Origin: Alphaproteobacteria bacterium | Lineage (GTDB): Bacteria > Pseudomonadota > Alphaproteobacteria > UBA7887 | Assembly: GCA_965216755.1 (NCBI GenBank) | Contig: CBDCGL010000011.1 | Span: forward strand, 4,480,001-4,544,000 | Direction: 5' to 3' | DNA length: 64,000 bases | In this document: positions 44,181-63,842 of the stretch, in pieces | How the letters are laid out: every line of letters starts with the position of its first letter | Numbering within the stretch: position 1 is the stretch's first letter | Made by a program: the position numbers and the translations under genes | The notes under the pieces: generated by a model | The model's input: only the letters and a program-made list of their open reading frames with translations | Databases searched by the model: none | Told to the model about the DNA's origin: nothing

Positions 44181-44266
44181 CGGGCGGTCGAAACGGCGGC
44201 TCGACTTTCTCTCATTGGCATCGCCCCGAACGGATTGGTCGGGGCCAAGATCATGGGTACCTTGCA

Positions 44267-44920: not shown

Positions 44921-44950
44921 TGAGCCACAGCGTGAGGATAGACGTTGACC

Positions 44951-45535: not shown

Positions 45536-45962
45536 GCGCCGGAAAGCGGCGACATCCGAGCGGCGGTGCGGCAACCGCCGCCGCTTCGCCGCGTTACGTT
45601 TGATTGATGTCCCGCCGCGCTGCGCCCGTGCCGCGGCGTTAGCACCCCGTGACACGAAATTCGGTCGTGCCGCGACCATCTCGTGGCCGGCCAAATACGG
45701 GTCCGTTTGCAGTTCATAGGTTCAAACGGACTCGTTGCGGGTGCGAATCAAGTTTGTTTGGTAGGGGCTTGATTTCGTTCTCTATTGCAAATTTTCATAA
45801 TATTCGATAAAAATCCAATTAGTGGTGCACAAACCAATGCCTAAACTTGCTATCGGTCTTGGATGATATTTTTCGGTGGCAGGGCGGCGGCGATGACGAT
45901 TGCGCGCGCATCATGACAACGCTGCTATTGGGATAGATCCATCGAAAAGGACGCCGGACAGC

Positions 45963-46655
45963 ATGCCAGAGACGGGGGCTCTGTACCGATTACTGTCATG
46001 GCTCACACCTTTGTTTCCACTTGAAACAGCCCGCATGGATCAGGGGTTGGAGGATGCCGTCGCGTCCGGCGTTCTGGTGGACCGTGAGACGTTGGTGGCT
46101 TGGAGCCGCGGCATTCTGGAGTATGGCGCTGCGTCGTTTGATGCGGTTGTTTTCGCGGCCGCGTGGCGGGCGGCGCGTCGGTCCGACCTGTCGGCGCTGG
46201 AGAACGTCTGCGACTTTGCGGTCAGTCTTTCTGGTGACGCGCATCGCGCGTTGGACAGTACACAGCAGGGCGACGCCTTTCTTCAGGCCGTGATGCGAAC
46301 TTGGCCCGAGTCCGGCCTCATGCGCACGGTCGACCGGCTGCGAAAGCGTGATCATGTGGTTGCCCATCCGATTGCAGTGGCACTGGTGTGCTACGATTCT
46401 GACGTCGCCCTAGAGCATGGCCTGCTGGCATATTTGCACGCCTACGTATCACACATTGTTCTTAAAGCGCGTCGATTGATCCCACTCGACATTAAAGATG
46501 GACAACGCGCAATCGGCATGCTGGAAATGGACGTGCTGCGTGCTGCCCGTATTGCGCGAACACGTACGCCGGCTGAAATCGGGGCGATCCTCAGTCGACA
46601 ACCCGGCGAGGCGTCAGATCCCGACGACCTGACCGGGCAGCCGTTGCGTCATTAG
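45963..46655 (+). CDS. UreF-like protein, divergent
   Basis: LYRLLSWLTPLFP...GLEDAV, QQGDAF, HPIAVA, AYL, and RLIPL...DGQR match the UreF pattern. The conserved C-terminal tail is missing. Confidence 0.75.
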   Translation: MPETGALYRLLSWLTPLFPLETARMDQGLEDAVASGVLVDRETLVAWSRGILEYGAASFDAVVFAAAWRAARRSDLSALENVCDFAVSLSGDAHRALDSTQQGDAFLQAVMRTWPESGLMRTVDRLRKRDHVVAHPIAVALVCYDSDVALEHGLLAYLHAYVSHIVLKARRLIPLDIKDGQRAIGMLEMDVLRAARIARTRTPAEIGAILSRQPGEASDPDDLTGQPLRH

Positions 46656-48637: not shown

Positions 48638-48658
48638 GCTCTGGGTAGGCTAGCCGCC

Positions 48659-51600
48659 GTGCGCGTTCTGTTCTGGATCGTCACGGGCATTCTGGTCGTG
48701 TCGCTGGTTGCGATCGGCGGTACCTATGGCGCGCTGCAGACCAATACCGGGCGCGACTATCTGTCTGCCCAAGTCGAAGCCCTGACCCGCGGTACCGACA
48801 ACCATGTGCGGATATCCGGACTGCAGGGGCATGTGCCATTCGATTTTGCTGCCGATGAAATCTCCGTCGCCGATGGCGATGGGGTTTGGTTGACCGTCCG
48901 TGGCCTGGTGCTGGACTGGTCGCCACAATACTTGGTTGGCCGCGTGTTCCGCGCCGAGCGTTTCGCCGTCGAGGAAATTGCCCTGGATCGGGCGCCGCGC
49001 TTGTCAGCAGCGCAGTCCTCAGCGGATTCGGATGCAGACGCCGGCATGGCGATACCGCTGGGGATCGATATTCAGAGCATCCAATTGACTCGGGTCGTGG
49101 TCGGCGCCGCGCTCGCGGGACGCGATGTCGTGTTTGCCGTTGATGGCGAGGCGGCCATCGATCTACCGGCCCAACAGCTTCACGTCGCCATGAAGCTCGA
49201 CAGGTTAGATGGCGTGCCCGGGCGGGCCCGGATCAACGGCACATTTGCCACTGTTACCGAGACGCTGACTCTTGATATATCGATCGACGAGGCGGCCGGC
49301 GGGTTGCTTGGCGCGTTGGCCGGGATGCCCGATCTGCCTGCGGTCACGATGGCGTTGGCCGGCAACGGCCGCCTTGACGACTGGCAGGCAACGCTCGACG
49401 CCCGGGTGCAAGGCCTGGCTGCCGTGACCGGGCAGGCACGCTTGGCCGCCATGCCCGGCGGGCGACAGGCTGAGGCAACATTGGACGCCGATGTCGCCGG
49501 GTTGCTACCCGCCAACCTGCGGCATTTGCTGCGCGATGGCGTTCATGTCGTCGCCTCGTCTCAGTTGATTGATCGCGGTCCGATCGATATCGACCTGCTA
49601 CGTCTCGAAACAACCGCTGGCGCAGCGACATTGTCCGGAACCGTCGACATCGAAGCGCAGCGTGTTGATATGTCCGTTCAAGCCGATGTGGGCGATTTGG
49701 CGGTCGCTGCGCCGTTGATTGGACAAGACATAGCGGGACGCGCGATTCTTGAGGCCGACCTGCACGGGCCTTGGATGTCGACGGTGGCCGAATTTCGTGC
49801 GCGCGCCGATGACCTGGTGCTGACCGATGCCGCGGTCGGCACGATCACCCTTGACGGTGTTGTCCGGCCCGACGGTGGAGACTGGGGTGCCGCCGGGACG
49901 GAGATCGCAGTGAGCGCTGATGGGCACCTCGACGATGTCATGGTCGCCGGCGCCGAGACGGTTTTGGCGGCATTGGGCAACGACGTCGGACTCGCGGCAG
50001 AAGCCCGGGTAAATCAACACACGCAGCTTGTTCTTGTCGACTCTGCCACCGTGCAAACAGCGACCATGGTTCTGTCGTCGGCCGGCCGCGTCGAACTGAT
50101 GGATGGCCGCATGCGGTTCGCCGTGCGCGGTGAGGTGCCTGACTTGGTGCCGTTTGCGCCACTTGCGGGCACGGCACTCGCCGGCGGCATCGGCCTCGAT
50201 GCCGAAATTGAGTTTGGCCAGGCGATGCCAGCAGTTATCGCGTTCAGCGTCGACGGCAAGGAGATGCGCTCAGGCGTCCCGTTCGCTGACGCTTTGATTG
50301 GGACGGCACCGATGGTGGCCGGGGTCGCGGAGATCGATCCCGGGGGCGCGGTGACCGTACGCGAAGCCCGATTGCAAGGGGCGTCGGTGTCGGCCGATGT
50401 TGCGGGCACGCTTGGCGCCGACGGCCATGTTGATGCGATGGTTCAGGCAGCATTGCCCGAACTTGCCGCGCTCAGCGATGCCACCGGCATGGGCGTGGCC
50501 GGCTCCTTCGATGTCAGTGCCGCGCTTAGCGGGACAGTCGCGGCGCCTGCCGCGGTGGTCGATTTCGGATTGCGCGACGCCGTGGTCGACCAATCTCCGC
50601 CGTTGAGCGCCACGGGGCGTATCCATGCCGCCGATCTAACGGGAGCGATTAACGGTCGTGCAGCAATCAATGTAGGCCTTATGGATACCGAAACAACGGC
50701 TGCGTTTGACTATGCCATGGTTGAAGAGGCTGTGTTGATCGACGACATCACGGTCGATGCGACCGCATTGAGAATAGGCGGCGACCTAAGCGTGCCGCTC
50801 AATGGTGGTGCGGCAATTGGCGCGTTGACCGGTCAGGTGACGGATCTGAGCCCCTGGGGCGCGTTGGCGGGTGTAGATGCCGGCGGCCATGTTAGGTTTG
50901 ACTTGGCCTTGCGCGCCGATGCCGGCGGCCAGGGTTTCCAACTCGCCGCAAATGGCGAATCGCTTGTGATGGCCGACAACCCGGTGTCGCTTGCCGCGGT
51001 GGCCGTTAATGTCACGGGCCGTCCCGATCAGTTCGAGTTCGACGTTGACCTTGATGGCAATCACGACCGTCCGATTTCGCTGCAGAGCGCCGGCAACGTG
51101 GCGCGGACATCCGACGGCGGGCAACAGCTGCGGCTGGCTCGGCTCGACGGCCGATACGGAGATATTCCCGTGCAACTCGCCGAGACGGCGGTGATCGATT
51201 TTCTGGGCGGCGCGGTTTCCGTTGAGAATTTCGCGGCGACGGTCGCGACCGGCACCGTGCGCGCACGTGGCCGCTACGGTGAAGAACGCATCGTCTTGAA
51301 TGCCGCGCTCGCCCAACTTCCCGTTGCGCTGGTGGCGCCGGACATTGCCGGCACGGTGGACGTGCAGATTGACGCGGATTTGACGGCAGGTTCACCACGA
51401 CTCGATGGCCGGGCGGAGCTTGTCGGCCTGCGCGTGCAAGATGACTCGATAGGGCCGTTGCCCGGGATCGATATCGGCGCAGACTTGACTTGGCAGGGGC
51501 AAAGTGCGGCCGTTGACATTGCGGCCACTGGCGTGCCCGGTGCCACGATCAGCGCCGGTTTCAGCCTGCCGCTGGGCACCGACGGCGTATCACCCTTGCC

Positions 51601-52915
51601 ACAATGGTCCAGCTCAGGAGAACTAAAAGGTCATGTCTCGGTCGATGCCGCCTTGGAGAAGTTGGCCTTTTTGATTCCGGACGAGAACAGTGTCGTACGT
51701 GGGGCACTGGCGGTTCAGGCCGATATTACCGGCAACATCGCCGAACCCGAGGTTCGCGGGACCACGGCCCTGAGCGGCGGCTATTACGAGAATGTTGCGA
51801 CGGGCACGATTGTCGACGATATCGAGCTGCGGATCCAAGGTGACGATCGTCGGATAACGATTGTCGAGCTCACGGCAAACGATGGTGGCGACGGTCGGAT
51901 CAACGGACACGGGCATATCGACTTGGATGCCGCGACTGATTTCCCGGTTTCATTTGATGTCGAGTTTGATCGCTTTGAAGCTCTGCGCAGCGACGATGCC
52001 ACCGCCGCGGCGTCGGGGGCGCTAGCGGTGCGCGGTCCGACCACGGCGCTTGCGCTAACGGGCGGTGTTACTGTCGGACCCGCGGAAATCCGCATTCCGG
52101 ATTCTGCGCCGGCGGGGGTCACGACATTGGATGTGATCGAAGTTAACGGCCAGGAGGGCGCCGGCGATGACATAGCCCAGCGGGAGCCGAAACGGGAGTC
52201 GCCAATCGCACTGGATATCGATATCAATATGCCCGGCCGGGTGTTCGTCCGTGGTCGCGGCCTGACTTCGGAATGGCGGGGACAACTCAGCGTCACGGGA
52301 ACGAGCGATGCGCCGCTGGTGCTCGGCACCTTACAGGTCGTACGGGGGCAATTCGAACTGATCGGCCGGCTATTGGACCTGGAACGTGGGGTGATTACTT
52401 TTGACCAGGCGGCGGTCAATGACCCGGGGTTGGACATCCGCGCGGTTGGCGACGCGGATGACATCATTGCAGTGATCTTGGTCTCAGGGCGCGCGTCGGC
52501 GCCAGTGTTGGAGTTGACCAGCGAGCCGCCGCTGCCGTCAGACGAAGTTCTGGCGCGGGTCCTGTATGGCAAGAGTGTCGGCAACCTCTCACCCATTCAG
52601 GCTTTGGGCGTGGCTCGCGGCCTGGCCACTTTAACCGGCGTGGGATCGGGTCCCGGGTTTTTGGACAAAGTACGCGGCGTCACCGGGCTTGACACCTTGG
52701 ACGTGCAGTCGGGGGGCGAAAGCGTTGACGAGGGTCGGTTGCGGGCCGGGAAATATATCGCTGATGGGGTTCTGTTGTCCGTTGAGCAAGGGCTAGCTCA
52801 GGGTAGCACGCGCGCCACATTGGAAGTGGATATCACACCAAATATTTCAGTTGAAACGAATGTTGGCGCCGATGCCCAAACTGGGATTGGCGTCAACGTC
52901 AAAACCGACTATTGA
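48659..52915 (+). CDS. tamB: TamB (DUF490)
   Basis: N-terminal TM, long beta-taco body, VFVRGRGL, SEPPLPSDEVLARVLYG, and AGKYI. Follows tamA. Confidence 0.93.
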   Translation: MRVLFWIVTGILVVSLVAIGGTYGALQTNTGRDYLSAQVEALTRGTDNHVRISGLQGHVPFDFAADEISVADGDGVWLTVRGLVLDWSPQYLVGRVFRAERFAVEEIALDRAPRLSAAQSSADSDADAGMAIPLGIDIQSIQLTRVVVGAALAGRDVVFAVDGEAAIDLPAQQLHVAMKLDRLDGVPGRARINGTFATVTETLTLDISIDEAAGGLLGALAGMPDLPAVTMALAGNGRLDDWQATLDARVQGLAAVTGQARLAAMPGGRQAEATLDADVAGLLPANLRHLLRDGVHVVASSQLIDRGPIDIDLLRLETTAGAATLSGTVDIEAQRVDMSVQADVGDLAVAAPLIGQDIAGRAILEADLHGPWMSTVAEFRARADDLVLTDAAVGTITLDGVVRPDGGDWGAAGTEIAVSADGHLDDVMVAGAETVLAALGNDVGLAAEARVNQHTQLVLVDSATVQTATMVLSSAGRVELMDGRMRFAVRGEVPDLVPFAPLAGTALAGGIGLDAEIEFGQAMPAVIAFSVDGKEMRSGVPFADALIGTAPMVAGVAEIDPGGAVTVREARLQGASVSADVAGTLGADGHVDAMVQAALPELAALSDATGMGVAGSFDVSAALSGTVAAPAAVVDFGLRDAVVDQSPPLSATGRIHAADLTGAINGRAAINVGLMDTETTAAFDYAMVEEAVLIDDITVDATALRIGGDLSVPLNGGAAIGALTGQVTDLSPWGALAGVDAGGHVRFDLALRADAGGQGFQLAANGESLVMADNPVSLAAVAVNVTGRPDQFEFDVDLDGNHDRPISLQSAGNVARTSDGGQQLRLARLDGRYGDIPVQLAETAVIDFLGGAVSVENFAATVATGTVRARGRYGEERIVLNAALAQLPVALVAPDIAGTVDVQIDADLTAGSPRLDGRAELVGLRVQDDSIGPLPGIDIGADLTWQGQSAAVDIAATGVPGATISAGFSLPLGTDGVSPLPQWSSSGELKGHVSVDAALEKLAFLIPDENSVVRGALAVQADITGNIAEPEVRGTTALSGGYYENVATGTIVDDIELRIQGDDRRITIVELTANDGGDGRINGHGHIDLDAATDFPVSFDVEFDRFEALRSDDATAAASGALAVRGPTTALALTGGVTVGPAEIRIPDSAPAGVTTLDVIEVNGQEGAGDDIAQREPKRESPIALDIDINMPGRVFVRGRGLTSEWRGQLSVTGTSDAPLVLGTLQVVRGQFELIGRLLDLERGVITFDQAAVNDPGLDIRAVGDADDIIAVILVSGRASAPVLELTSEPPLPSDEVLARVLYGKSVGNLSPIQALGVARGLATLTGVGSGPGFLDKVRGVTGLDTLDVQSGGESVDEGRLRAGKYIADGVLLSVEQGLAQGSTRATLEVDITPNISVETNVGADAQTGIGVNVKTDY

Positions 52916-52925
52916 TCTCTCGTTT

Positions 52926-55421
52926 TCAATCGGCAGAAGGCGGCGTCTGTGACAGGGCCAGTGGCGCGGCAGCCAGCGCCGGCGGAAAGTCTCCGATATG
53001 GTAGTTGTGGCATTCCGTGCAGCGATCGCCGGCCAGTTCATGCTTATGGCATGCAGCGCAGGTTGATTTGTCCAATGAACGGAAATTACTCGCGAATTGG
53101 GCGGGTTGGCGGTGGTCAAAACTGGCCATGTACGCTGCTGCCGGATCCAGGATGTGGCAAGTGAGGCATCCGGCCTCGTTCAACAGGCTGAAATGGGGGA
53201 CATGCGCGTAGACGCTGAATCGCTTGTCATTTGGCTGTGGCGGCACGGTCAGCCAATTGATGAGGAACCCGCCATTTTGGCCCTTGCGGTCGTCGACGCT
53301 GTGGCACTTGGTACAGGAGCCGACTGTTTTTGAGTTGGTGAGTAGTTGTGCCAGCGGTGCGCCAAGGGGATCAGCGCCGCCGATCATGCCGGACAGGTCA
53401 AGCCATGCGCGCATGAACCCGTCGGCATGATCGCCAGGTCGGTAATACAAGCCATAGTCTTGCCGATACCAGCCGCCAGCATTGCTCCAGGCTTCTGGGG
53501 CGACCGGCCTTAGCGCTTGCGGCAGCGGTGTCACGTCCACGTCCGCCACCGGCGCCGACGCGCGGTCGTTGCTGTCCGGCATGTCGCCCGCGTTGCCGTC
53601 CGAAAGGCTGATTTCATCGTCGTCTGCCAGCAGTCCTTCGTCCCCCAGTAGGTCGCCGTCGTTGCCCAGCAGGTCGCCACCGTCTGCTAGCAAATCATCG
53701 CCCAGCAAATCACCATCGTCCGCCAGCAGATCGTCGTCGAGCAGGCCGCCAAGGTCGCCATTGTCGGCTTCCGCGGTCGGTGTATCGAATAGGGTCTCGG
53801 CATCGTCAGCGGCGCCGTCGCTGTCGAGCAGGCCGCCAAGGTCCAGCTCTTCCGTTGTTTGGGCGGGCGTCTCGGCAAGGTCACCAGTCGCCTCCGGTTC
53901 CGACACGTGGCTGGCGATTTCCGAGGCCGTTGGCCCCATGACGATGTCGCCCGCCGCGTGGCGCGCCAACTCGGTGCCCAAGTCTGGAAACCACTCGCTT
54001 TGTGCCGCCAAGACGGCATCGGTTGGCAGCATGCCGATCAATGATGCGACTTGGTCACTTGTTAGCTGTCGCCCAGCCACTCGTGACAGTCGATCGGCAT
54101 ATGCGTCGTGGCCGTCGACGACAATTGACCCGAGCATTTTTTTGACGCCCCACGCGACGCGGGCGACGGCGGCCAATTGGTGGTCGTCTGCGTCCAACAA
54201 ATCGAGCAGGTCCAGCGTCGACACCTCGTCCAGAGCGTCGGCGACATCGGGGTCCGCGGCCAGTAGCACACGCACGAAGGGCGTGATCGGGCCGTCGGCA
54301 TAATAGGGCCAATGGCCGATCTCAACATTGCGGGCGTCGAGGGTCTGCAGGTCCAGACCCGGCAACGCAATAACCGGCAGTCCTTTGACACCCGCGCGGC
54401 CCTCGCCGGCGATTTGTTTGCCGTGGCACGCGCGGCAAGTTTGGTCGAAGTCCTTCACCAGCATGTAGGCTCCGCCCGTGTCGGGTTCATGGCAGCCGGT
54501 GCAGGCCGTTGGCGCGTCGACGGTGTCCGGTTCCCTAAAATGCTTACCGATATGACCGACATGGTCGAAAATAATCCGCGTTCGCCTTTGATAAGGAAAC
54601 GACTCAAACTGCGGATGACCCTGGACAAACGTATCAAATGCTCTTTCGTGACATGTGTGGCAGTGCAGGTTGGAAATCTCGTCCAAGGTATAGCGCTGCC
54701 CGTGATGCTCTCGATGACACGTTGAACAGGCCAAATCTTGGTCCTTCGGCTGTTGGCCGAATACGAACTTGGCCACTGTCGGCATAATTGAAACTTGCTG
54801 CGGTCGTGGCATGTTCTGCAAGCGGGTCGTGACCGGCTTCAATGTTTCCGGCGCCAAGCTGTGTGCTTTGGTCGCGTAGTTGCCAAGCCGATGGCACGCA
54901 AGACATGGCGCGCTGTCTTCCGCTGCGCTCCGCGGTAAGAACGCTGCCTGCAGCCAGCCAATAAGTCCGTGCTCGGAACCAGTGTGGCATCCGTCGCAGG
55001 TCGCCACGTCGCCATGTTGATAGGTCACTTCGCCGGGCACGACCACACGCTCCGCCAGGCGACCATTGAGCAGTAAGAGGATGGCACCAACGGTCAGGCA
55101 CACAAGCCACAGTGTTGTCAAACCGCGTCGGGCACGATCACTACGTTTGGGGACGCAGCGGTCTATCGGACGGGCGCAGCGACCATCAGGAAGCGGGCCG
55201 TCGGTGCAACGGCCGCCATATTGCGGTGCACGCGTGCACGACCATCGATCGTCGGTATTGAGTGGAATGCATTCAAAATCGGCCCGGCATTGGCCACGCA
55301 AATCCGGTCCGATCCGGCATGTGCGACCGTCTTGGGCGCGTCCGCAGACCCATGGCTGCGACGGCCGTTCATAAGCACTTTCGCGGTGACCAAACCGCTG
55401 CCAAAGGGATGACATACTCAC
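52926..55421 (-). CDS. membrane-anchored decaheme c-type cytochrome with N-terminal Cys-rich repeats
   Basis: Ten CxxCH motifs (CDGCH, CLACH, CSTCH, CHTCH, CTGCH, CRACH, CTKCH, CLTCH, CAACH, CTECH) after a single TM helix; 8 further Cys before the TM. Confidence 0.9.
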   Translation of the reverse strand: MSMSSLWQRFGHRESAYERPSQPWVCGRAQDGRTCRIGPDLRGQCRADFECIPLNTDDRWSCTRAPQYGGRCTDGPLPDGRCARPIDRCVPKRSDRARRGLTTLWLVCLTVGAILLLLNGRLAERVVVPGEVTYQHGDVATCDGCHTGSEHGLIGWLQAAFLPRSAAEDSAPCLACHRLGNYATKAHSLAPETLKPVTTRLQNMPRPQQVSIMPTVAKFVFGQQPKDQDLACSTCHREHHGQRYTLDEISNLHCHTCHERAFDTFVQGHPQFESFPYQRRTRIIFDHVGHIGKHFREPDTVDAPTACTGCHEPDTGGAYMLVKDFDQTCRACHGKQIAGEGRAGVKGLPVIALPGLDLQTLDARNVEIGHWPYYADGPITPFVRVLLAADPDVADALDEVSTLDLLDLLDADDHQLAAVARVAWGVKKMLGSIVVDGHDAYADRLSRVAGRQLTSDQVASLIGMLPTDAVLAAQSEWFPDLGTELARHAAGDIVMGPTASEIASHVSEPEATGDLAETPAQTTEELDLGGLLDSDGAADDAETLFDTPTAEADNGDLGGLLDDDLLADDGDLLGDDLLADGGDLLGNDGDLLGDEGLLADDDEISLSDGNAGDMPDSNDRASAPVADVDVTPLPQALRPVAPEAWSNAGGWYRQDYGLYYRPGDHADGFMRAWLDLSGMIGGADPLGAPLAQLLTNSKTVGSCTKCHSVDDRKGQNGGFLINWLTVPPQPNDKRFSVYAHVPHFSLLNEAGCLTCHILDPAAAYMASFDHRQPAQFASNFRSLDKSTCAACHKHELAGDRCTECHNYHIGDFPPALAAAPLALSQTPPSAD

Positions 55422-55424
55422 GGC

Positions 55425-56249
55425 TTACGAGAACGCATAGACCAGGACAATATGAACCAAGATGAGGATCAGAAGCACGGTGCTGACTGGCACGTGGACA
55501 AACTGCCAACGGCGCAACAAAGATTGCATCGCGTATTGAAAATCCAAGTCGTCTTTTGTGCGCACCAAATCGGCAAGCTGGTCCATCACGGCGCACTCGC
55601 CAGCGTCCAGATAACGTTCGAGGCCGCGCATTTGATTGAGCAACCGGGTGCGTGGTCGGCCGGACAGCATGGCGTGGCGCCAGAAATTTCGGGGCCGATC
55701 AAAAAAGCTATGCAACTGGTCGCTGTAATAATCCGCGATCGTCGTCGAGCGGGCGTCCTTAACAGAATTGATCGCCAGAGCTTCGGCTTGCGTCGCCAGT
55801 TTGCGCCGGTAGATCGGAATCCGTTCGTAAACGACATTCTCACCCCGCACAGACAGCCGGGGCGGCACGGCGCGGAACAGAAGCCAACCGACCAAACCGC
55901 TGGCGACGACGAAAGCAAAAGCAATGGCGAGAACGGTTTCGAACGGCCCGTCCGGTACTTGCCAGTCGACGTGCACGCCGAAGAGAAACGCACAGACCAA
56001 GCCGATATAGACGTGCAGTTGCAGCCAAGCGGACGACGAACCCAACGGCAAAAACGGCAACCGCCGGCGAATTTGATAGCAAGCCAAGAAGAGGATCGTC
56101 AGAAACAATGTCCAGCCGGTCAAGAATGATGGATTGCGCAGCGTCGATGCATAGATCGCGTGCACGCCGGCGAGTACGATCACGATCACAACAGCCGTCC
56201 CCGCATGCACCATTCGGCGCCTGGCAAAGGTGATCATCTGTGGATCCAA
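55425..56249 (-). CDS. integral membrane protein, probable diheme cytochrome b (ferric-reductase-like TM domain)
   Basis: About five TM helices, with two H-x13-H pairs (HVYIGLVCAFLFGVH and HVPVSTVLLILILVH). Confidence 0.75.
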   Translation of the reverse strand: MDPQMITFARRRMVHAGTAVVIVIVLAGVHAIYASTLRNPSFLTGWTLFLTILFLACYQIRRRLPFLPLGSSSAWLQLHVYIGLVCAFLFGVHVDWQVPDGPFETVLAIAFAFVVASGLVGWLLFRAVPPRLSVRGENVVYERIPIYRRKLATQAEALAINSVKDARSTTIADYYSDQLHSFFDRPRNFWRHAMLSGRPRTRLLNQMRGLERYLDAGECAVMDQLADLVRTKDDLDFQYAMQSLLRRWQFVHVPVSTVLLILILVHIVLVYAFS

Positions 56250-57946
56250 GCCATCAACTTGTCCGGTGTTCTGAGATCGATGCGAACCAAGGCATCATTC
56301 GGACACGCGCGCTGGCACGCGGGACCACCCAATTGATCGGCACAAAGGTCGCATTTGGTTGCCCGCTCGATGGGCGCATTGGTGGCCTGATCGATGACGA
56401 ATTCGCCAGCCCGATTACGGATGTTCACCAACCGAATATTATTGTAGGGGCACGCACTCGCACAGGTCCCACAACCGATGCATGTGTCGTCGTTGATCAC
56501 CACAGTGCCGCCCTCTGTATCGCGGTGGATCGCGCCGGTTGGACAGCCGATGAGGCAGACCGGATCGACGCAATGCATGCAGGCATTGGCGATCATGAAA
56601 TGATCATAGTGCGGGCCGTGGCGGACAAATCGCGGGTTGTTGCCATGCGCGGCGGCGCACGCGCGCACGCATTCGTCGCAGCGTGTGCACCGGTCGACGT
56701 CGATGACCATAGTCTGTGTGCCGTTAATAAACCGATTGTCGACCAAAAACTCCAGCATGGCCGACTCGATGCGCCCTTCGGACGTGCCACGCTGCCACGC
56801 CGATTGAACGCCGCTGCGGGTTTCAACCGGTTCCGGCAGCGCCGCGGCCGGCATGGTTGGCAAAATGTGGTCGGCGACCAGATCACCGGGGATGCGCAGC
56901 ACGTCGACATATCCTGTCGCGCGCATGGTGCCTTGGAATGAAATCTGCTGATCGTTACGCCAATTGTGGACGATTTCCCTCAGGCCGAACGTGCCCCCGG
57001 GGCCCAAATAGCCGACCGTGCGATGGCCGTGGTCGACCCGTTCGGTGACCCGCGCAAATCCCGACCGCACAATAATCAAGCTATCGGCGTGTTCATCTTC
57101 GCCAGCGATAATCGGCTCGCCGGCGAGCCTTTCAGCATGTGTCCGTTCGCCCGCTGCCTTGTAGGCCGTGTACCATTCGAAACTGCCATAAGAGGCAAAC
57201 TGCGTGCGCGGCGCAATCTCCGCGATTTGCCCGGGGGTCAGGTGGGAGAGCAGGGGTGTGTCGCGAAGCTGGGCCGCCAAACTGCGCTCGCGATATAGCT
57301 GATCAATCTGTTCACGAAACTTGCGATCGCGACGGCGGATATCACGCAGACCTTGCCATCGAATTTCCAGCAGCTCCGAATCGCCGTCGGCGTAGATCGT
57401 TGCCGTTCGAGGCGCGCGCGATATGGCGCCAATCTCGCCGAACATTTCGCCCGCGCCTATGAGGGCGGTCCGATGGTTCTTCGTCACTTGCGCCGGATCG
57501 GGCAACGCGACGCGGATATCGTCGTCACCGTCGCCACGGACAATGACTTGCTCGCGCCGTCCCAAGTCACGGACTTCCGGTTGGCCAGGGTTGTTCCAAA
57601 GCTGGCTGATCGCCGACCACATCCCCCGCCGACTCGCTTCTTGGCGACCCAACGCTTTGGCAGGTAGCCGTGGGCCAAGCACGACCCGCGCGGCACCGGT
57701 CAGCACAACAAACGCCGAATTGCCATAATCCTCGGCGCGCACGACAATGTCGCCATAGCTATAACTGCGAATGCGCGTGTCATTGCGGATGATATCGCGC
57801 AAAGGCGCTGTATCTGGGAAGCTTGACGGATCGACTTGGGCAAAGGGATCGTGCGCCAAAACGCGATCAATGTCGGCTTCCGACATCGACGTGCTAAACG
57901 GATTTTCCCAACGGTCCGGACGATGAATTTCTACCGGTCGCGCCAT
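56234..57946 (-). CDS. two cyclic-nucleotide-binding domains fused to a four-cluster 4Fe-4S (DmsB/NrfC-type) module
   Basis: GEMFGEIGAISRAPRTAT phosphate-binding cassette and a second degenerate cNMP domain. Sixteen Cys: CTRCDECVRAC, CMHCVDPVCLIGCP, CIGCGTCASACP, and CDLC...PACQRACP. Confidence 0.9.
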   Translation of the reverse strand: MARPVEIHRPDRWENPFSTSMSEADIDRVLAHDPFAQVDPSSFPDTAPLRDIIRNDTRIRSYSYGDIVVRAEDYGNSAFVVLTGAARVVLGPRLPAKALGRQEASRRGMWSAISQLWNNPGQPEVRDLGRREQVIVRGDGDDDIRVALPDPAQVTKNHRTALIGAGEMFGEIGAISRAPRTATIYADGDSELLEIRWQGLRDIRRRDRKFREQIDQLYRERSLAAQLRDTPLLSHLTPGQIAEIAPRTQFASYGSFEWYTAYKAAGERTHAERLAGEPIIAGEDEHADSLIIVRSGFARVTERVDHGHRTVGYLGPGGTFGLREIVHNWRNDQQISFQGTMRATGYVDVLRIPGDLVADHILPTMPAAALPEPVETRSGVQSAWQRGTSEGRIESAMLEFLVDNRFINGTQTMVIDVDRCTRCDECVRACAAAHGNNPRFVRHGPHYDHFMIANACMHCVDPVCLIGCPTGAIHRDTEGGTVVINDDTCIGCGTCASACPYNNIRLVNIRNRAGEFVIDQATNAPIERATKCDLCADQLGGPACQRACPNDALVRIDLRTPDKLMAWIHR

Positions 57947-57967
57947 ACCAGACGAGGCCGCGCCGCG

Positions 57968-59020
57968 CTAGCGGGCTGGCTTACCCTTGTAGCTTTCCGG
58001 CGCGGGAAGCAGGGCATCGAGCCCGGCAAGGTCGGCGCCGTCATTGGATTCGGCAAATTGTCGTGCGGCGGCTTCGATCTCATCGGCGGCCGCGTTCAGC
58101 GCATCCGCGTTGTTCAGCTTGAGTTTGACGCTGCCCGCGACCGCCAGCATGGCGTCAACCTCGGCAATCGACGCGGCTTTGCCGATTTGCTGCAGCCGCT
58201 GAGCCGCGGTCTTTGCCCGTTTTGCCATTGCCTTTGCATAGTCGGCGTTGGCCGTCGCCTTGGCGACGCCGCGCAGGGCGAATGTCAGGTCCAGGGCGCG
58301 CCCGACGACATACATGACGCGCTTGCGCGCGTCAGTCGCCTCGCGATTGGCTTTGCCTTCGGAAAACCAAATATTGTGACGCACTTCGCCTTGCGACCAG
58401 GCAACGAGCTCAAAAGCGCTGCCAGCCGGGTGGCCGCCTTCATTGACGAGTTTTTCCTCTGGCACGGTATGGCAGCCATAGCAGTTCGATGCCCAATCGA
58501 CGATCCACAACGGCCGGATCAATCCGGCAGCCTCGACCGTTGCTAGTCGTTCCGCCTTATGTTCAGGTGTCTCCGATTCTGCGGTGACATCCTTGCCGCC
58601 AAAATCGCTGTGGGGATCATTCCAATCCTTGGCCGCGCCGTGGCACGATTCACAACTGATTCCGGCAATTGCTTTTGTTTCACCGTCTGAAACAGCTTCG
58701 GTGAAATGACAACTCAGACAAACGCTCTCGTCTTTGATGCGGCGCAGGCCCAGCTTGTCGGCGATTTCGCGGGCCTTGTCCTCGCGCGGCATGGTCGTAA
58801 AGGTCTTGGCGTGATGCGTCTCTCGCCACACTTCGACCTCTTCCTTATGGCACTCGCCACACGTGTCGGGCCCCAGCACCATGGCCGGATCAGTTGCCGC
58901 ACCCCCAGCCGCGGCCGGTGCGGCCCAAAGCAGCATCACACCGCCGGCAACGGCGGCTGCCGCGCTGGCAAGTTGATTGTCCATGCCAGGACTTACACTC
59001 AAGGACATCTTGACCGGCAT
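57968..59020 (-). CDS. periplasmic tetraheme cytochrome, c554-like
   Basis: RBS GGGAGG, signal peptide, CGECH, CLSCH, GISCESCHG, CYGCH, and a C-terminal helical domain. Confidence 0.88.
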   Translation of the reverse strand: MPVKMSLSVSPGMDNQLASAAAAVAGGVMLLWAAPAAAGGAATDPAMVLGPDTCGECHKEEVEVWRETHHAKTFTTMPREDKAREIADKLGLRRIKDESVCLSCHFTEAVSDGETKAIAGISCESCHGAAKDWNDPHSDFGGKDVTAESETPEHKAERLATVEAAGLIRPLWIVDWASNCYGCHTVPEEKLVNEGGHPAGSAFELVAWSQGEVRHNIWFSEGKANREATDARKRVMYVVGRALDLTFALRGVAKATANADYAKAMAKRAKTAAQRLQQIGKAASIAEVDAMLAVAGSVKLKLNNADALNAAADEIEAAARQFAESNDGADLAGLDALLPAPESYKGKPAR

Positions 59021-59135
59021 TCGCTCGCAATCCTCCCATTGAGGCGCCAGTTGATTATGTTTGGCGCCATGACCTCGCCAGGCGAGAATAGCATACTCGT
59101 TGACGCCTTCGGAATCCGACTCCCCGTGTCAACAT

Positions 59136-60404
59136 TTACGCATCAAGAACCAAGTCGGTCTTGGGAATCGCGATGCATGTCAGGCACGTACCGGCTTTGA
59201 CCTCGGCGGTCGGCTCAGTCAGATAGGTGACTTCGCCCGTCCGGATTGCCGTCACACAGGTTCCGCAATTGCCGACCCGGCAGCCAAAATCTATGGGTAC
59301 GGTGTTGGCTTGCGCCAGATCCAAAAGCGATCCTGCCGCGCCAGTCCATTTCGCCGTGCGGTTTGAGCGTTCAAAACTCACGGCCAAAGGGGTCTCGTCT
59401 TTGTCGTCGGCGACACCGGGTGCAGCGGCGCCTTGGACGCTGGCCGCCGCAAACGCTTCGCGATGCACGCGATCGTCCGGAACGCCCCATTTTCGGAGAT
59501 CCCCGCTCACTTGGGTCATCATCGCGGGCGGCCCGCAGATAAAGAAATCGTAGTTGGACGAGGGCAGTGTGTCTTTCAGATGATCGATCGAGATATGGCC
59601 CTTCAGATCGTAATCGGACTCGCCGTCCAGTCCCGGCCGTGGGCTGCTATAGGCGACGGTGACGTGAATGTTTTCGTTATCCAGATCAAAATCGCGTAGG
59701 CGCTCTTTGGTAAGATGCTCCAAGCCATTGCGCACACCGTAGAAAACCCAAACTTCACGCTTGCTGCCTGTTTCCACAATCGCGTCGAGCATGCTCAATA
59801 TGGGCGTGATGCCGATGCCGCCGGCGATCAACACCAAAGGCGAGTTTTCCAGCGGATCGATCGTGAAGTTGCCGCTGGGCGCGATCACGTCGATCAGGTC
59901 GCCCGCGTGCATGCCCCGATGCAAATGATTGGAAACCAGCCCCTCCGGCGCCGTATCGTTCTTGGCCGGGGCGGCCAGTCGCTTGACAGTGATTTGATAC
60001 TCGTCCGGCTCCGGCGTCCATTGCGACAGTGAATAGCAGCGCACCACCGGCCGCGGCTGGTCTTTCATGGCAAACCGAAAGGTCAGGAACTGGCCGGGTC
60101 GGTACGGGGGCAGGGGGCGATGATCGTGAGGCACCAAGCGAAACGAGGCGATATTGTCCGCTTCCGGAACGACTTCCGAGATTTCGAACTTGCGATAACC
60201 GCTCCAGCCAAAATTGACCCGATCCGTTTCCCCCTGAGTGGTCGCGGCCGCGGCCATCACATTTTGCCTGAGCACTTCCAGGGACAAGCGCCGCCGGTCG
60301 CGTTCGAAGGTCGAGCGCCTGGCAGATTCGACCAGCATCATCGTGGCTTGCGCCAATACCAACGCGATGATCAAGGCACCGGCAATTTGAACCAGCAATG
60401 CCAT
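59136..60404 (-). CDS. membrane-anchored FAD/NAD(P)H-binding reductase with C-terminal 2Fe-2S domain
   Basis: N-terminal TM, PGQFL, RCYSLS, GLVS, IAGGIGITP, FFICGP, and CRVGNCGTC...C. Confidence 0.92.
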   Translation of the reverse strand: MALLVQIAGALIIALVLAQATMMLVESARRSTFERDRRRLSLEVLRQNVMAAAATTQGETDRVNFGWSGYRKFEISEVVPEADNIASFRLVPHDHRPLPPYRPGQFLTFRFAMKDQPRPVVRCYSLSQWTPEPDEYQITVKRLAAPAKNDTAPEGLVSNHLHRGMHAGDLIDVIAPSGNFTIDPLENSPLVLIAGGIGITPILSMLDAIVETGSKREVWVFYGVRNGLEHLTKERLRDFDLDNENIHVTVAYSSPRPGLDGESDYDLKGHISIDHLKDTLPSSNYDFFICGPPAMMTQVSGDLRKWGVPDDRVHREAFAAASVQGAAAPGVADDKDETPLAVSFERSNRTAKWTGAAGSLLDLAQANTVPIDFGCRVGNCGTCVTAIRTGEVTYLTEPTAEVKAGTCLTCIAIPKTDLVLDA

Positions 60405-60468
60405 CACGCGCGTGGCTCCTTGGTTGGTCTTGACGATGGGACGTTCACGGCAGCCAGACCGAGTAGAA

Positions 60469-61887
60469 CTAGAACTTAACCTGAATCTCGGTTCGCGCGC
60501 CAAAACCGGCGCCCTCTGTCTCGGTCATCGAGCCGAACAAATCCAATTGCCAAAACGCCTGATTGTGAATTTGCAATTGATAGCGGCCGCCCAGCGCAAA
60601 CGCGTCTGAGTCAGACCCGTCGGCTGATTTCCGCGCGCCAAACTCAAGCACCAATTGTTCACGGTTGTTTGGGACCAAGAACCATTGGTGGCCGACCGAA
60701 AACCCGATAACGTCCTTGGCGCGATTGCTGAGCGCCGAACCAAAACGGCCGAGGCGCTGCGACGCGAACAGGATTCCGGCGCGTCCCAGCGGCCCGCCGA
60801 CCTGCGGATCACGGGCGGCCATGGTGAATTCATCCAATGCTGCGAACGCGGTGGCGTAGAGAATGTTGTCCGTACCCAAGGGTGTCGTCGACACATCGGC
60901 GAATAACAGATAGCCGTCCTTGGCAGCACGCGTGTCGCCGTCGAATGCCTGCGAGGTCATGAAGCGAAACGACGATGTCCAAAGCCCGAAACGTTGTACC
61001 GCGCTGAGACCCAAATAGGCCGCGTCACCGCCATTGTCGTCGGACGCCACATAGATTGCGTCCAAAGCCACGGTGCTCTTGTAAAAATCCGCCTCGTTGA
61101 ACAGCCCAAACAATTGCGCGTTGCTGTCCACGTCACTGTCGCCGCGGCTCACCTCGCCCCAACCATAAAGCCCAGAGACCCGCAAGTTCGCGCCGCCGGG
61201 AACGGTCAGGGAATTGCGCACGATGCCAATCGAGTCGAGCGCGGTATCGTCGATCAGGATCCCTTGTTGATAGGAGATCGCCTGACGCCCGACCGCAAAG
61301 CCATAGTCGAGGGTGCCGGAATCGTCCCGGTCCAGGTCGGGAAACAGTTCGCCGAAATCGCCTTCGAAAAACAGGGTGCGCACGTTGCCGTTGAAGCTTT
61401 CAAACGAGCCGCGCTCTGAGTCCGGCCCCAGCGTATAGCCGGTGTAGTTGACGCCTTGTCGCAACGGGTTGATTCCCAACAGCAATCTTTCCGTGCCCGT
61501 GAGCTGCAGATTGGCAAACAGATCGAGCGAGTTGGCCCATTCGGTGATTGGCTTGCGATCACCGCGGTCGAAGCTCTGCAAAGCCGTACGATAGGTTCCA
61601 AAGACCCACAAGGACGGTCGCCAGACGGCGCCGGTTGGCAGTTCCCAGCCCGGCTCGATATTGCCGACTTCCAGGAACGGGTCGCCAAATATCACCAGTG
61701 GTTTCGCCTGTGGCGGCAGCTCATCGACGACGTAGGGTACGGGCTCATCGGGTAGACTACGGCCGTAGATGCTGACCGCCGCGTCAACGGACCCGCATTC
61801 GAACGCCACCCATCCCGCCGCTCCAGCGATCGCCCATGCTGTAAAGTGCCACCGTCGGCGACACCAATCGCCCACCCGTTCCGCCAT
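60469..61887 (-). CDS. putative outer-membrane beta-barrel (porin-like)
   Basis: Signal-like N-terminus, alternating aromatic/polar beta-strands, GRQ motif, and C-terminal beta-signal TEIQVKF. Confidence 0.72.
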   Translation of the reverse strand: MAERVGDWCRRRWHFTAWAIAGAAGWVAFECGSVDAAVSIYGRSLPDEPVPYVVDELPPQAKPLVIFGDPFLEVGNIEPGWELPTGAVWRPSLWVFGTYRTALQSFDRGDRKPITEWANSLDLFANLQLTGTERLLLGINPLRQGVNYTGYTLGPDSERGSFESFNGNVRTLFFEGDFGELFPDLDRDDSGTLDYGFAVGRQAISYQQGILIDDTALDSIGIVRNSLTVPGGANLRVSGLYGWGEVSRGDSDVDSNAQLFGLFNEADFYKSTVALDAIYVASDDNGGDAAYLGLSAVQRFGLWTSSFRFMTSQAFDGDTRAAKDGYLLFADVSTTPLGTDNILYATAFAALDEFTMAARDPQVGGPLGRAGILFASQRLGRFGSALSNRAKDVIGFSVGHQWFLVPNNREQLVLEFGARKSADGSDSDAFALGGRYQLQIHNQAFWQLDLFGSMTETEGAGFGARTEIQVKF

Positions 61888-61907
61888 TTGCGACCTCGAC
61901 GACGTTA

Positions 61908-63842
61908 TTATTCGATTTCAAACTCGACTATCTTACGAGCGGCGACCGTGTGTCCGTCAACCAGGGCGTCGCCGACCGATCGTGGGCTCATGTTGAAGTC
62001 GAAGCCGACATCTTGAATTGCGTGGATCAAGTTTATCGGCACCATGCCAACAACGATTTCGACCTCAGCCGTGTAGGGACCGTAAACAATTAGTTCTTCA
62101 CCCGGCACCGTATAGGCGGTGCGGCGGCTGCCGAGCGGTTCGATGCCGCGCTTGTGGATGCGCGCGCTAAGTGGCCGACCGGTCAGAATGGTCGACCGTG
62201 TCGCCGGGCGAACAAACGGCAGCACATCGAGTGAATAGTTGGCGGCCAAGACTTGCTCGCGTTCGCCGCCGCGATTGTTCAGGGTCACAAAAAACGATTG
62301 CAGGCTATACAGCTGATCATCCAGCGGCACATCGCCACTGAGCACCAATTGCGAATGGGAATCGCGCAGGTCGCCGTTGCTGTCCAGGTCGCCAGAGACG
62401 AACACGGGTTGATCATCGCTGTCATATACGGTCACCCGCAGCCAGACGAGACGTTCCGCAATAAAGCCGGTCGGCACATTGTGTCCGTCGGTCCCGTTCC
62501 TAATTTCGACGTTGAGGCGAATGCCGTTGCGATCAGCTTTTTCAATGATCACCTCGCCGATCTTGAAGCCGGCACTGAGTACTTCTTGGCGCTTCGCCTT
62601 GGCCCAGGCGAGCAGCTCGAATTGGTCATCAAGGATATCGCGCGCGTCATAGCGATCATCGATCGTGCGCCAGCGTTCCGGAAATGTGTAATCCTCCGGC
62701 ACGTTGTCTTCGAACGAATCAGTGCCCCAACCGGCCTCATAATCGAACGTCAGCCACTCCTCCAACGTGGCCATGCGCGCGGCTTCGACATTGTGCGGAA
62801 AGATCCCCGGATGCACGATTGAATGGTCCGGACCGGCGAAATAATGATTGGTCAACTTGCGCGGCTCTGTCGCCACGCCGCCGATCTCTGCCGCCGGCCC
62901 GTGTTCGTATCCGGACACCACGCCCTGCACCTTGCCCATATGGCAATCGTGGCACGTGGCGCCGCCATCGGCACCGCTATTGCGCAAATCGTTGGCCGGT
63001 GACGTCTTGAATTCACTAAATGCTTCTTCCAGTCGAAACCCGTTGGGCAGTGTCACATCGTGGCAGGTACCGCAAAAGCCCGGCTCGACCATCTGGAAAA
63101 AACGTTCGGCCTCGGTGTGGATCTTGCGACCCGGCTGGTCCGCGTCGGTGACCACTTTGTAACGATTCCGGTTGTCGAGGACCCGATTGAGTTCGTCACC
63201 CCCCGTTGGGCCGCGCACCGGCTTTAGGATGTCGCCTTGGTCGATGGCCATGCGACCACTGATCTTGCCATACGCTTGGCTGACACGATGACAGACCACG
63301 CAGGTGATGCCTTCGCGTGACGTGGGATGCCGGTCGAGATTGTTAGTGGCGATGCCTTCGCCGAGATTCATGCCCACCTGGTTGTGACAGCGGATGCAGA
63401 AGTCACCCACCGTGCCACTCAGGCGATCATAGCTAAATCTCTGCATGGCCATGTAAATTGGGCTCAGCTGGGCATAGGAATGTTGTGAGACGGACCACTC
63501 GCGATAGTGTTTCGGGTGGCAGGTCATGCAGGTCGTCGCCGAGGGGTAGCGATCTTCCAGAAACAGGGCTTCGTGGGCCGCGGCCGCAGTCGAACCCGCT
63601 AGCGCACCCGGTTCGTCTTCAGCTTCAGTATCAGCGTCGGCCGTCGGTTCATCGAGTGGTACTTCGTCGTCGCCGAGCAAGTCGTCGCCACCCAAAAGGT
63701 CGTCGCCGCCGAGCAAGTCATCATCTGCAAGCAGCGTGTCGTCGCCAAGTAGGTTGTCATCTTGCGCAAGACTTGGCCCGGCCAAAGTAAGCGCCGCCGC
63801 CATGCCGATCGCCATAGCAACTCGCGAGAACCTGATTTGCAT
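61908..63842 (-). CDS. exported pentaheme c-type cytochrome (c554/c-prime-like N-terminal region) with acidic repeat
   Basis: Signal peptide ending SLA-Q; CMTCH, CIRCH, CVVCH, CGTCH, CHDCH; YREWSVSQH; GHNVPTG in a beta-rich C-terminal domain. Confidence 0.9.
   Translation of the reverse strand: MQIRFSRVAMAIGMAAALTLAGPSLAQDDNLLGDDTLLADDDLLGGDDLLGGDDLLGDDEVPLDEPTADADTEAEDEPGALAGSTAAAAHEALFLEDRYPSATTCMTCHPKHYREWSVSQHSYAQLSPIYMAMQRFSYDRLSGTVGDFCIRCHNQVGMNLGEGIATNNLDRHPTSREGITCVVCHRVSQAYGKISGRMAIDQGDILKPVRGPTGGDELNRVLDNRNRYKVVTDADQPGRKIHTEAERFFQMVEPGFCGTCHDVTLPNGFRLEEAFSEFKTSPANDLRNSGADGGATCHDCHMGKVQGVVSGYEHGPAAEIGGVATEPRKLTNHYFAGPDHSIVHPGIFPHNVEAARMATLEEWLTFDYEAGWGTDSFEDNVPEDYTFPERWRTIDDRYDARDILDDQFELLAWAKAKRQEVLSAGFKIGEVIIEKADRNGIRLNVEIRNGTDGHNVPTGFIAERLVWLRVTVYDSDDQPVFVSGDLDSNGDLRDSHSQLVLSGDVPLDDQLYSLQSFFVTLNNRGGEREQVLAANYSLDVLPFVRPATRSTILTGRPLSARIHKRGIEPLGSRRTAYTVPGEELIVYGPYTAEVEIVVGMVPINLIHAIQDVGFDFNMSPRSVGDALVDGHTVAARKIVEFEIE

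Follow-up and report, generated by a model that had tools for sequence, protein, structure and literature searches.

An alphaproteobacterial copy of ptdABCDEFG, a gene cluster for a probable electron path from NAD(P)H to a pentaheme cytochrome predicted to sit under a small outer membrane pore

Gene content of the cluster

We analyzed a 64,000-nucleotide stretch of DNA (the window; positions 4,480,001 to 4,544,000 of contig CBDCGL010000011.1, assembly GCA_965216755.1) from an alphaproteobacterium of the UBA7887 lineage. The window contains seven open reading frames (ORFs), all on the minus strand and transcribed from 63842 to 52926. Judged by its described parts and its gene order, this seven-gene cluster is a copy of the named but uncharacterized ptdABCDEFG system. 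With the likely start codons, the intergenic gaps from ptdA to ptdG were 20, ~64, 115, 21, -4, and 3 bp, and the positions, shared direction, and gaps of the ORF list agree with an initial annotation of this DNA that had described seven co-directional, closely spaced genes. Residues are numbered from the ORF starts, those of PtdA from 63920.

The first gene, ptdA (63920/63842-61908), is open from 63920 and likely starts at the ATG at 63842; its product is an exported pentaheme c-type cytochrome with a C-terminal Ig-like domain and the fold of PHC, MccSep, and 5ZE8. It is followed by ptdB (61887-60469), encoding an outer membrane β-barrel of 18 predicted strands, a channel of the OccD/OccK/AlgE/MOMP type and the predicted partner of PtdA, and by ptdC (60503-59136; likely start, the ATG near 60404), encoding a FAD/NAD(P)H reductase with an N-terminal membrane anchor and a C-terminal [2Fe-2S] domain, in the PaaE/Hcr/BenC-type order. 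The product of ptdD (59020-57968) is an exported tetraheme cytochrome composed of a c554-like N-terminal half and a helical C-terminal half, and that of ptdE (57946-56234) is a cytoplasmic protein with two cyclic nucleoside monophosphate (cNMP)-binding domains and a DmsB/NrfC-type four-cluster ferredoxin. The likely start of ptdF (56249-55425), the ATG at 56237, overlaps the ptdE stop by 4 bp; PtdF has five transmembrane (TM) segments, four invariant His residues on TM3 and TM5, and a large cytoplasmic loop. The last gene, ptdG (55421-52926), encodes a single-TM decaheme cytochrome with an N-terminal, predicted cytoplasmic domain containing eight Cys residues (the 8-Cys domain).

CxxCH motifs numbered 5, 0, 0, 4, 0, 0, and 10 from PtdA to PtdG, which gives the 19 c-type hemes counted originally. 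Pfam placed FAD_binding_6, NAD_binding_1, and Fer2 in PtdC, Cytochrome_C554 in the penta- and tetraheme proteins PtdA and PtdD, and Fer4 plus two cNMP_binding stretches in PtdE. With a TM segment at residues 33-51 of PtdC, 16 Cys in four motifs in PtdE, and one TM segment in PtdG, these matches bear out the first description of PtdC as a TM-anchored FAD/NAD(P)H/2Fe-2S reductase, PtdD as a c554-like tetraheme protein, PtdE as a protein with two cNMP domains and four [4Fe-4S] clusters, and PtdG as a TM-anchored decaheme cytochrome. None of the seven proteins was assigned by Pfam or NCBIfam to the NrfD, CymA, or molybdoenzyme families, and there were only weak partial matches to NapC/NrfH heme motifs; the absence of such subunits had been noted before. 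A promoter and terminator scan gave no excess over shuffled sequence (3 versus 4.1 and 8 versus 11.8).

Match to ptdABCDEFG and synteny

The ptdABCDEFG (penta/tetra/deca-heme) cluster was named by Elbon, Stewart, and Glass in a preprint (bioRxiv 10.1101/2023.11.21.568154), which gives its function as completely unknown. The preprint lists marine Alpha- and Gammaproteobacteria, Nitrospirales, and Planctomycetes as carriers of ptd, reports that ptdAB is strongly transcribed in an oxygen-deficient zone and that ptd is co-transcribed with nod, suggests iron reduction in oxygen-deficient zones, and gives 5ZE8 as a PtdA homologue. The cluster described there agrees with the one here in all seven parts and in their order, with a pentaheme protein bearing a beta-sandwich first and the decaheme last, and its PtdB porin, PtdC FAD/NAD(P) oxidoreductase, and ferric reductase-like TM protein PtdF are all matched; the homology of PtdA to the pentaheme c552 of Thermochromatium tepidum holds here too. 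The preprint states two 4Fe-4S clusters, whereas 16 invariant Cys here indicate four. Its accessible part says nothing about how large the barrel is, about the 8-Cys domain or the heme-2 site, or about a cNMP pocket being intact, and no follow-up on ptd was found among the matches listed in the open-access literature from 2023 on. The initial annotation had supposed that no characterized system has this architecture; a system with the same parts and order had been named earlier, though it is itself uncharacterized.

PtdE matches occurred in 14 of 301 sampled genomes of the class, the source genome included, and each subunit has thousands of homologues. All seven genes stood together in 10 of the 14 genome loci, five in the order ABCDEFG and five in the order DEFGABC; the other four loci comprised one cut by a contig end (six genes), one on a 6-kb contig (D and E), one broken among transposase-like ORFs, and one distant variant. 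PtdB profile matches were found in 5 of 401 genomes of the phylum, and one PtdB homologue is named from Ferruginivarius sediminum. Of 421 metagenome PtdB loci, the 80 best were analyzed, 13 of which had no room upstream; ptdA lay directly upstream of ptdB in 64 of the remaining 67 and 627-750 bp upstream in the other three. The metagenome loci of at least 17 kb (n = 16, two of which, L132 and L136, may be near-duplicates) comprised 11 with all seven genes, one with six, two with AB only, one with ABD, and one with CAB. This recurrent seven-gene synteny, the co-occurrence that had been proposed as a check, indicates that the cluster is not a product of chance. In the metagenome loci L078 and L084, ptdAB occurred without ptdC-G within ~8-10 kb on either side, and one genome cluster (L060) had no ptdC in the surrounding 20 kb.

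The identities of PtdA and PtdB to their homologues co-varied (57-67% and 43-60%, respectively, in one clade; ~39% and ~27% in the other), and one locus, L021, was a mosaic that combined near-type AB with far-type DEFG. These results suggest that AB and DEFG are modules and that C is mobile. PtdA was the best-conserved subunit in 6 of 11 loci, with 57-67% identity in those six compared with 33-43% for PtdG. One genome (G182) carried two ptd clusters (L017 and L025), one for each gene order and clade, and a decayed ptdEFG, with ptdE and ptdG in several frames, was seen beside transposase-like ORFs (L028, 6533-11142).

The PtdB barrel and the predicted PtdA-PtdB complex

PtdB matched no Pfam family. 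AlphaFold2 (AF2) modeled the product of 60469-61887 as a β-barrel, as had been supposed, with a predicted local distance difference test (pLDDT) score of 91.6; 18 barrel strands were counted from the DSSP list, and the C-terminal residue is Phe. The closest folds were OccAB3, OpdQ, MOMP, AlgE, and OccD (Z 25-28, root mean square deviation [rmsd] ~3; 27.8 for OccAB3 and OpdQ), compared with Z 12.6 and rmsd 8.5 for MtrB. Many charged residues of PtdB are conserved. No match to the MtrB family PF11854 was found in PtdB or in the source genome.

Prediction of a complex between PtdA (residues 115-670) and PtdB (residues 43-472) gave a score of 0.90, and the best control gave 0.00. In the calibration, 116 of 157 solved pairs and 2 of 215 mismatched pairs reached the 0.90 mark, counts that apply only approximately here, because custom alignments were used for PtdA and PtdB. 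Contact agreement between runs was at least 93% and partner pLDDT at least 88. The pairing of pentaheme and barrel suggested at the outset is thus upheld by the prediction; no solved complex of a PtdA-PtdB pair was listed in the fold searches.

On the PtdB side, all eight periplasmic turns took part in the interface, together with the N-terminal extension, strand residues that line the lumen, and a portion of loop 7; the other outer loops were uninvolved apart from strand-end residues. The best contacts came from a heme-free PtdA loop (562-595) that is sent into the lumen. PtdA also contributed the flanks of the heme-2 motif (168-174, R177, and 183-193) and the helix after E298; its heme-1 and heme-5 motifs do not face the barrel. 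Conservation of the PtdB interface was 0.67, compared with 0.61 for the rest of the protein (p 0.01). PtdA is therefore predicted to cap the periplasmic face of an 18-strand channel. No description of an enzyme docked under its own porin was found in the open-access literature.

In MtrCAB and PioAB, too, the barrel gene adjoins the gene for a periplasmic multiheme cytochrome, an arrangement that ptdAB shares, as it does a tight complex, which here is a predicted one. MtrB, however, has 26 strands with MtrA embedded within, according to the structural report (PMC7198977). In the known systems, a sheath of 26 strands encloses a decaheme and is joined by a surface cytochrome, whereas PtdB would be an 18-strand channel and PtdA a globular periplasmic cap. 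PtdA scored 23.8 bits against the MtrA/DmsE model TIGR03508, for which the cut-off is 192.

The pentaheme fold of PtdA and its heme-2 site

The AF2 model of PtdA (pLDDT 88) had a single clear fold match, 5ZE8 (Foldseek E 6e-15; TM-score 0.68 by target), and the PtdA profile matched the same protein with an E value of 3.8e-16. This pentaheme c552 of T. tepidum is the sole solved structure with the PtdA fold; it is smaller than PtdA, 16% identical, and has Cys where PtdA has Glu298. A study of the PHC family (PMC11976967) presents the 5ZE8-type fold as common to ExtKL/MccSep and the PHC family of cable bacteria and links the PHC fold to archaeal nanowire cytochromes.

All 10 Cys residues of PtdA lie within heme motifs, with no selenocysteine (Sec) and no other Cys, and the five hemes were counted without invoking any CxxCK motif. 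Four invariant His residues (H147, H268, H359, and H480) occupy the matching distal motifs. At the heme-2 distal-ligand position, where 5ZE8 has Cys, E298 is Glu in 103 of 103 homologues. N-termini of PtdA homologues showed no consistent lipobox in 29 read by eye.

MccSep/ExtKL, the pentaheme polysulfide reductase of Geobacter, offers the closest functional comparison. The study of MccSep (bioRxiv 10.1101/2025.11.18.688581) describes hemes 1, 3, 4, and 5 as bis-His, heme 2 as His/Cys ligated and catalytic, acting with Sec, and heme 1 as the proposed point of electron entry; it gives nitrite, sulfite, and hydroxylamine as typical ligands of an open heme site. PtdA shares with MccSep/ExtKL five CxxCH motifs, the Ig-like domain, four distal His positions (by motif), and a gene near a porin gene, ExtI in the account of the ext locus (PMC11976967). 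The family match is weak (NF040886, E 2.4e-9, 36 bits versus a cut-off of 250). With the residue register taken via 5ZE8 and by eye from two supplementary rows of PMC13510729, the heme-2 ligand C239 of MccSep becomes Glu298 in PtdA, and the catalytic Sec U325 becomes Phe486, or Ser in the other clade. PtdA cannot use the Sec/Cys mechanism, because it has no Cys outside its heme motifs. It is thus not an MccSep, yet a special heme 2 may be kept. No true MccSep exceeded the NF040886 cut-off in the 401 phylum genomes.

On plasmids, only distant PHC relatives were found (5 records, ~22% identity). A compact pentaheme family, ~360 amino acids (aa) after heme 1 and mostly from one family of the phylum (L035 and L038-L054), has Glu at the position of E298 and lacks the His motif of the Ig domain. 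Acidic, LLGDD-type low-complexity repeats were seen in the mature N-terminus of PtdA (~63760-63600, minus strand), in the inter-heme linker of PtdG (53900-53600, minus strand), and in many PtdA homologues; they are possibly flexible periplasmic spacers.

PtdC and PtdE

The FAD, NAD, and 2Fe-2S motifs of PtdC are kept in all 11 locus homologues. Its TM segment and the basic residues that follow point to a cytoplasmic enzyme on a membrane anchor. PtdC resembles flavohemoglobin (NO dioxygenase) in the reductase part only (profile positions 142-396 of 399), and Pfam found no globin domain in it.

In PtdE, the ferredoxin part contains 16 Cys in four DmsB/NrfC-type motifs, each Cys present in 119 of 119 homologues, so that four Fe-S clusters are likely. 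The phosphate-binding cassette of the first cNMP domain, G-E-x(7-8)-R-[TSA]-A, is kept (G170 in 118, E171 in 119, and R180 in 118 of 119 homologues), whereas the second domain is degenerate, without Glu and Arg at the cassette positions. No hydrophobic segment was found in PtdE. Among the best 150 PtdF matches, two (P0420 and P0462) were natural fusions of PtdE with PtdF. No description of direct cyclic-nucleotide control of a transmembrane electron wire was found in the open-access literature.

A distant sister module (L030, 8262-15734) encodes a 795-aa Pyr_redox-2xcNMP-ferredoxin fusion, a PtdF-like protein, and an FHA-decaheme protein, with a c554-like tetraheme gene on the opposite strand and no ptdA, ptdB, or ptdC match within 20 kb. 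There the PtdE homologue is fused to a pyridine nucleotide-disulfide reductase domain, in contrast to the separate PtdC of the cluster here, suggesting that electrons from NAD(P)H are fed in by two separate means.

PtdF, PtdG, and PtdD

Hydropathy gave five hydrophobic segments in PtdF. The initial annotation had recognized it as an H-x13-H membrane protein; three such pairs are present, of which H79/H93 and H252/H266 occur in 150 of 150 homologues. The third, H15/H30, was rejected as a heme site, the pair not being conserved among homologues. We take the two H-x12/13-H pairs on TM3 and TM5 to be the di-heme b arrangement of the NOX type. The Atlas cluster of PtdF bears the automatic name ferric reductase-like TM (score 0.97).

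PtdF thus shares with NOX, FRD, and MsrQ two H-x13-H pairs on TM3 and TM5, and by analogy with them a cytoplasmic-side NAD(P)H-FNR donor and quinone-independent outward flow may be expected. In the Ptd system, however, the FNR domains reside in an anchored protein of their own, electrons would pass through an intervening four-cluster cNMP-ferredoxin, and a decaheme cytochrome would accept them.

In PtdG, the 10 CxxCH motifs are split into six and four by an acidic linker, and the single TM segment (100-118) follows a basic stretch, so the hemes should face the periplasm. The eight Cys of its N-terminal domain are kept in 11 of 11 loci, which suggests a metal site on the cytoplasmic side. This domain had no Pfam match in any of eight members and a best PDB E value of 0.31, comparison with PtdE returned nothing, and full-length PtdG had no meaningful PDB match. 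In L030, an FHA domain occupies the N-terminus of the decaheme protein, in place of the 8-Cys domain.

PtdD aligned with cytochrome c554 (1BVB) with an E value of 3.5e-8, the tetraheme core being alignable over residues 50-152. Compared with c554 of Nitrosomonas (CycA), PtdD scored 42.5 bits versus a cut-off of 400 and has an additional helical C-terminal half and four extra invariant His (H70, H137, H197, and H215, in 11 of 11 loci). With these residues, every heme could be bis-His ligated, which would fit an electron carrier. Neither hao nor another octaheme gene is among the seven ptd genes.

Genomic surroundings

Convergent to the cluster, tamA and tamB (46802-52915, plus strand; best NCBIfam matches, below cut-off) end 10 bp from the ptdG stop. 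They were rejected as cluster members, being convergent and not noticed by eye beside other ptd loci. The ORFs at 43326-46655, read by eye, are presumably Tad pilus accessory-like (a TPR protein and two pseudopilin-like proteins) and UreF-like. Just past the window end (L001, 4051-9410) lie a divergent gene for a spondin-domain protein, then a gene for a class III cyclase-AAA-TPR protein, and a 379-aa ORF that is cyclase-like by eye and has no Pfam match. A cyclase gene lies ~3.5 kb upstream of ptdA; it was not taken to show linkage, since class III cyclase matches number 33 in the host genome, many of them in frames of ~1100 aa.

Elsewhere, the host genome encodes a NapC-type cytochrome and four COX1-family matches in open frames of 533-570 aa, which we take to be shorter than qNor and Nod. 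An octaheme HAO/HDH-like protein (L143, 2966-6181; contig C11 of the source genome, G000, ~1286-1289 kb) matched NF052343 with an E value of 7e-32, far below the cut-off, and adjoins ORFs that resemble a split cytochrome b by eye.

Proposed electron path and its rivals

The cluster probably serves to move NAD(P)H-derived electrons over the inner membrane to a pentaheme cytochrome predicted to lie beneath a small outer membrane pore, not to the cell surface. The specific path, from NAD(P)H through PtdC, a cNMP-controlled PtdE, PtdF, PtdG, and PtdD to heme 1 and then heme 2 of PtdA, where a small solute entering via PtdB would be reduced, has in our judgment somewhat less than an even chance of being right. 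It is built on genes, motifs, conservation, synteny, and fusions read from the sequence and on predicted folds and a predicted PtdA-PtdB complex; heme b and Fe-S binding, direction, cNMP gating, catalysis, and substrate are what we infer.

In the inner module (C, D, E, F, and G), PtdC would oxidize cytoplasmic NAD(P)H and pass single electrons via FAD and [2Fe-2S] to the four [4Fe-4S] clusters of PtdE, which would be seated on PtdF. The two b hemes of PtdF would take the electrons over the inner membrane without a quinone, to the anchored decaheme PtdG and then the periplasmic tetraheme PtdD. Reductases with the domain order of PtdC usually take their electrons from NAD(P)H. The membrane potential favors outward movement of electrons, whereas the reverse direction, to NAD(P)+, would require a donor of very low potential. 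Since outward electrons, with protons released inside, would spend proton-motive force, the path would need a switch, a role that probably falls to the cNMP pocket kept intact in PtdE. In the outer module (A and B), PtdA would be a pentaheme redox enzyme of the periplasm, held against the underside of PtdB. If it works as its homologue MccSep does, electrons would enter at the exposed heme 1 and reach heme 2, for which the residue aligned with the distal ligand is Glu298 rather than His or Cys. Because heme 2 is predicted to lie on the pore-facing side, PtdA most likely reduces a small soluble compound entering through PtdB; a nitrogen oxide or oxyanion, a chelated metal, and a redox shuttle are candidates. 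The view that the cluster supplies a part for every compartment is supported by the anatomy of the seven proteins, and the suggested route from NAD(P)H to the periplasm that bypasses quinones gains from the four invariant His of PtdF and the natural E-F fusions.

Several observations weigh against this path. The L060 cluster without ptdC and the occurrence of ptdAB alone in 2 of 16 long loci indicate that a single chain of all seven proteins is not obligatory. In DEFGABC-type loci, PtdA is only ~39% identical, below PtdE. PtdF had no Pfam Ferric_reduct match and no PDB sequence match, only weak PDB matches to helical bundles. The PtdA side of the interface is no better conserved than the rest (0.69 versus 0.72, p 0.92), and the complex was folded without hemes and is read as residue lists only. 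Loop 562-595 of PtdA may plug the PtdB lumen. Finally, H116, K219, or H370, all near-invariant, could ligate heme 2, and PtdA would then be a plain carrier.

The porin beside multiheme cytochromes, the 19 hemes, and the strong predicted complex invite comparison with MtrAB and PioAB, in which case PtdA would thread its hemes through PtdB to minerals, humics, or electrodes; the iron reduction raised in the ptd preprint and the reported link of the PHC fold to nanowire cytochromes fit this as well. The analogy, which the initial annotation had drawn, is weakened: PtdB has 18 predicted strands, as in solute channels, versus 26 in MtrB, to which it is a weak match; the modeled interface is periplasmic; the PtdA loop inserted in the lumen has no heme motif; the cluster encodes no surface lipoprotein cytochrome; and PF11854 was not found in the source genome. 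We consider the threaded arrangement very improbable, and a conduit to extracellular solids is unlikely. A plug rather than a channel is what the reach of the PtdA loop to PtdB loop 7, the usual constriction, might indicate. PtdB would then be an outer membrane anchor, and PtdA, PtdD, and PtdG would store or relay electrons in the periplasm without having a specific substrate site, acting as a redox valve or capacitor for surplus NAD(P)H; the energy cost of an outward NAD(P)H path would suit an overflow valve, and the His of PtdD suffice for bis-His ligation throughout. Such a store is unlikely, given the Glu kept invariantly at heme 2, the catalytic heme of the MccSep fold, the high conservation of PtdA, and the conserved charged residues of PtdB.

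cNMP domains in every PtdE checked, a cyclase-rich host, and the FHA domain that replaces the 8-Cys domain in L030 would accord with a signaling or redox-sensing role, in which electron flow would mainly be a read-out or output of cNMP and phospho-signaling and not serve bulk metabolism, or with an inward path from a periplasmic donor to NAD(P)+. The seven proteins contain no kinase, DNA-binding, or cyclase output domain, however, inward flow would require a very low-potential donor against the membrane potential, and ptdAB is reported to be highly transcribed, as metabolic genes would be; we find this quite improbable. The remaining alternative keeps the proposed path and fixes its substrate, as a system devoted to NO, hydroxylamine, or nitrite and connected with Nod, HAO, or the oxidation of nitrite. 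The c554 homology of PtdD, the match of PtdC to the flavohemoprotein reductase domain, the co-transcription with nod and presence in Nitrospirales reported in the preprint, the ligands typical of open heme sites, and the HAO-like octaheme elsewhere in the genome speak for it. Against it, PtdC lacks a globin domain, the five hemes of PtdA need no CxxCK, and the four COX1-family frames of the host are presumably too short for qNor or Nod. With no Nod-length COX1-family frame in the source genome, the cluster seems able to do without nod in this host, and so narrow an assignment strikes us as unlikely.

Returning to the path from NAD(P)H to PtdA, a bolder form of it is that the cluster is a quinone-free wire, gated by a second messenger, that would draw on NAD(P)H and the membrane potential to power a porin-capped enzyme, unlike an Mtr-type wire, and so reduce an inorganic nitrogen or metal substrate. 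As part of the same tentative idea, which we think more probably wrong than right, that porin-capped machine of marine and oxygen-poor waters, with a His/Glu or open heme-2 site, would be the prototype of an undescribed class.

Implications

The cluster is in print and common, and this copy is no discovery in itself. New here are the predicted 18-strand, OccD/AlgE-type barrel of PtdB, which is not a 26-strand MtrB sheath, and the predicted PtdA-PtdB complex, together with features read from aligned homologues: the invariant Glu at heme 2 of PtdA, the E-F fusions, the one cNMP pocket left intact in PtdE, and the conserved 8-Cys domain of PtdG. With these, the vague label "porin-cytochrome complex" becomes a set of specific questions about a periplasmic cap, an open heme 2 by Glu298, and gating of a four-cluster ferredoxin by cAMP or cGMP. 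Genome surveys that score ptdAB as a mineral-respiring conduit would over-call extracellular electron transfer. The interest lies in testable structural predictions for a widespread system, one reported to be highly transcribed in ocean oxygen-deficient zones.

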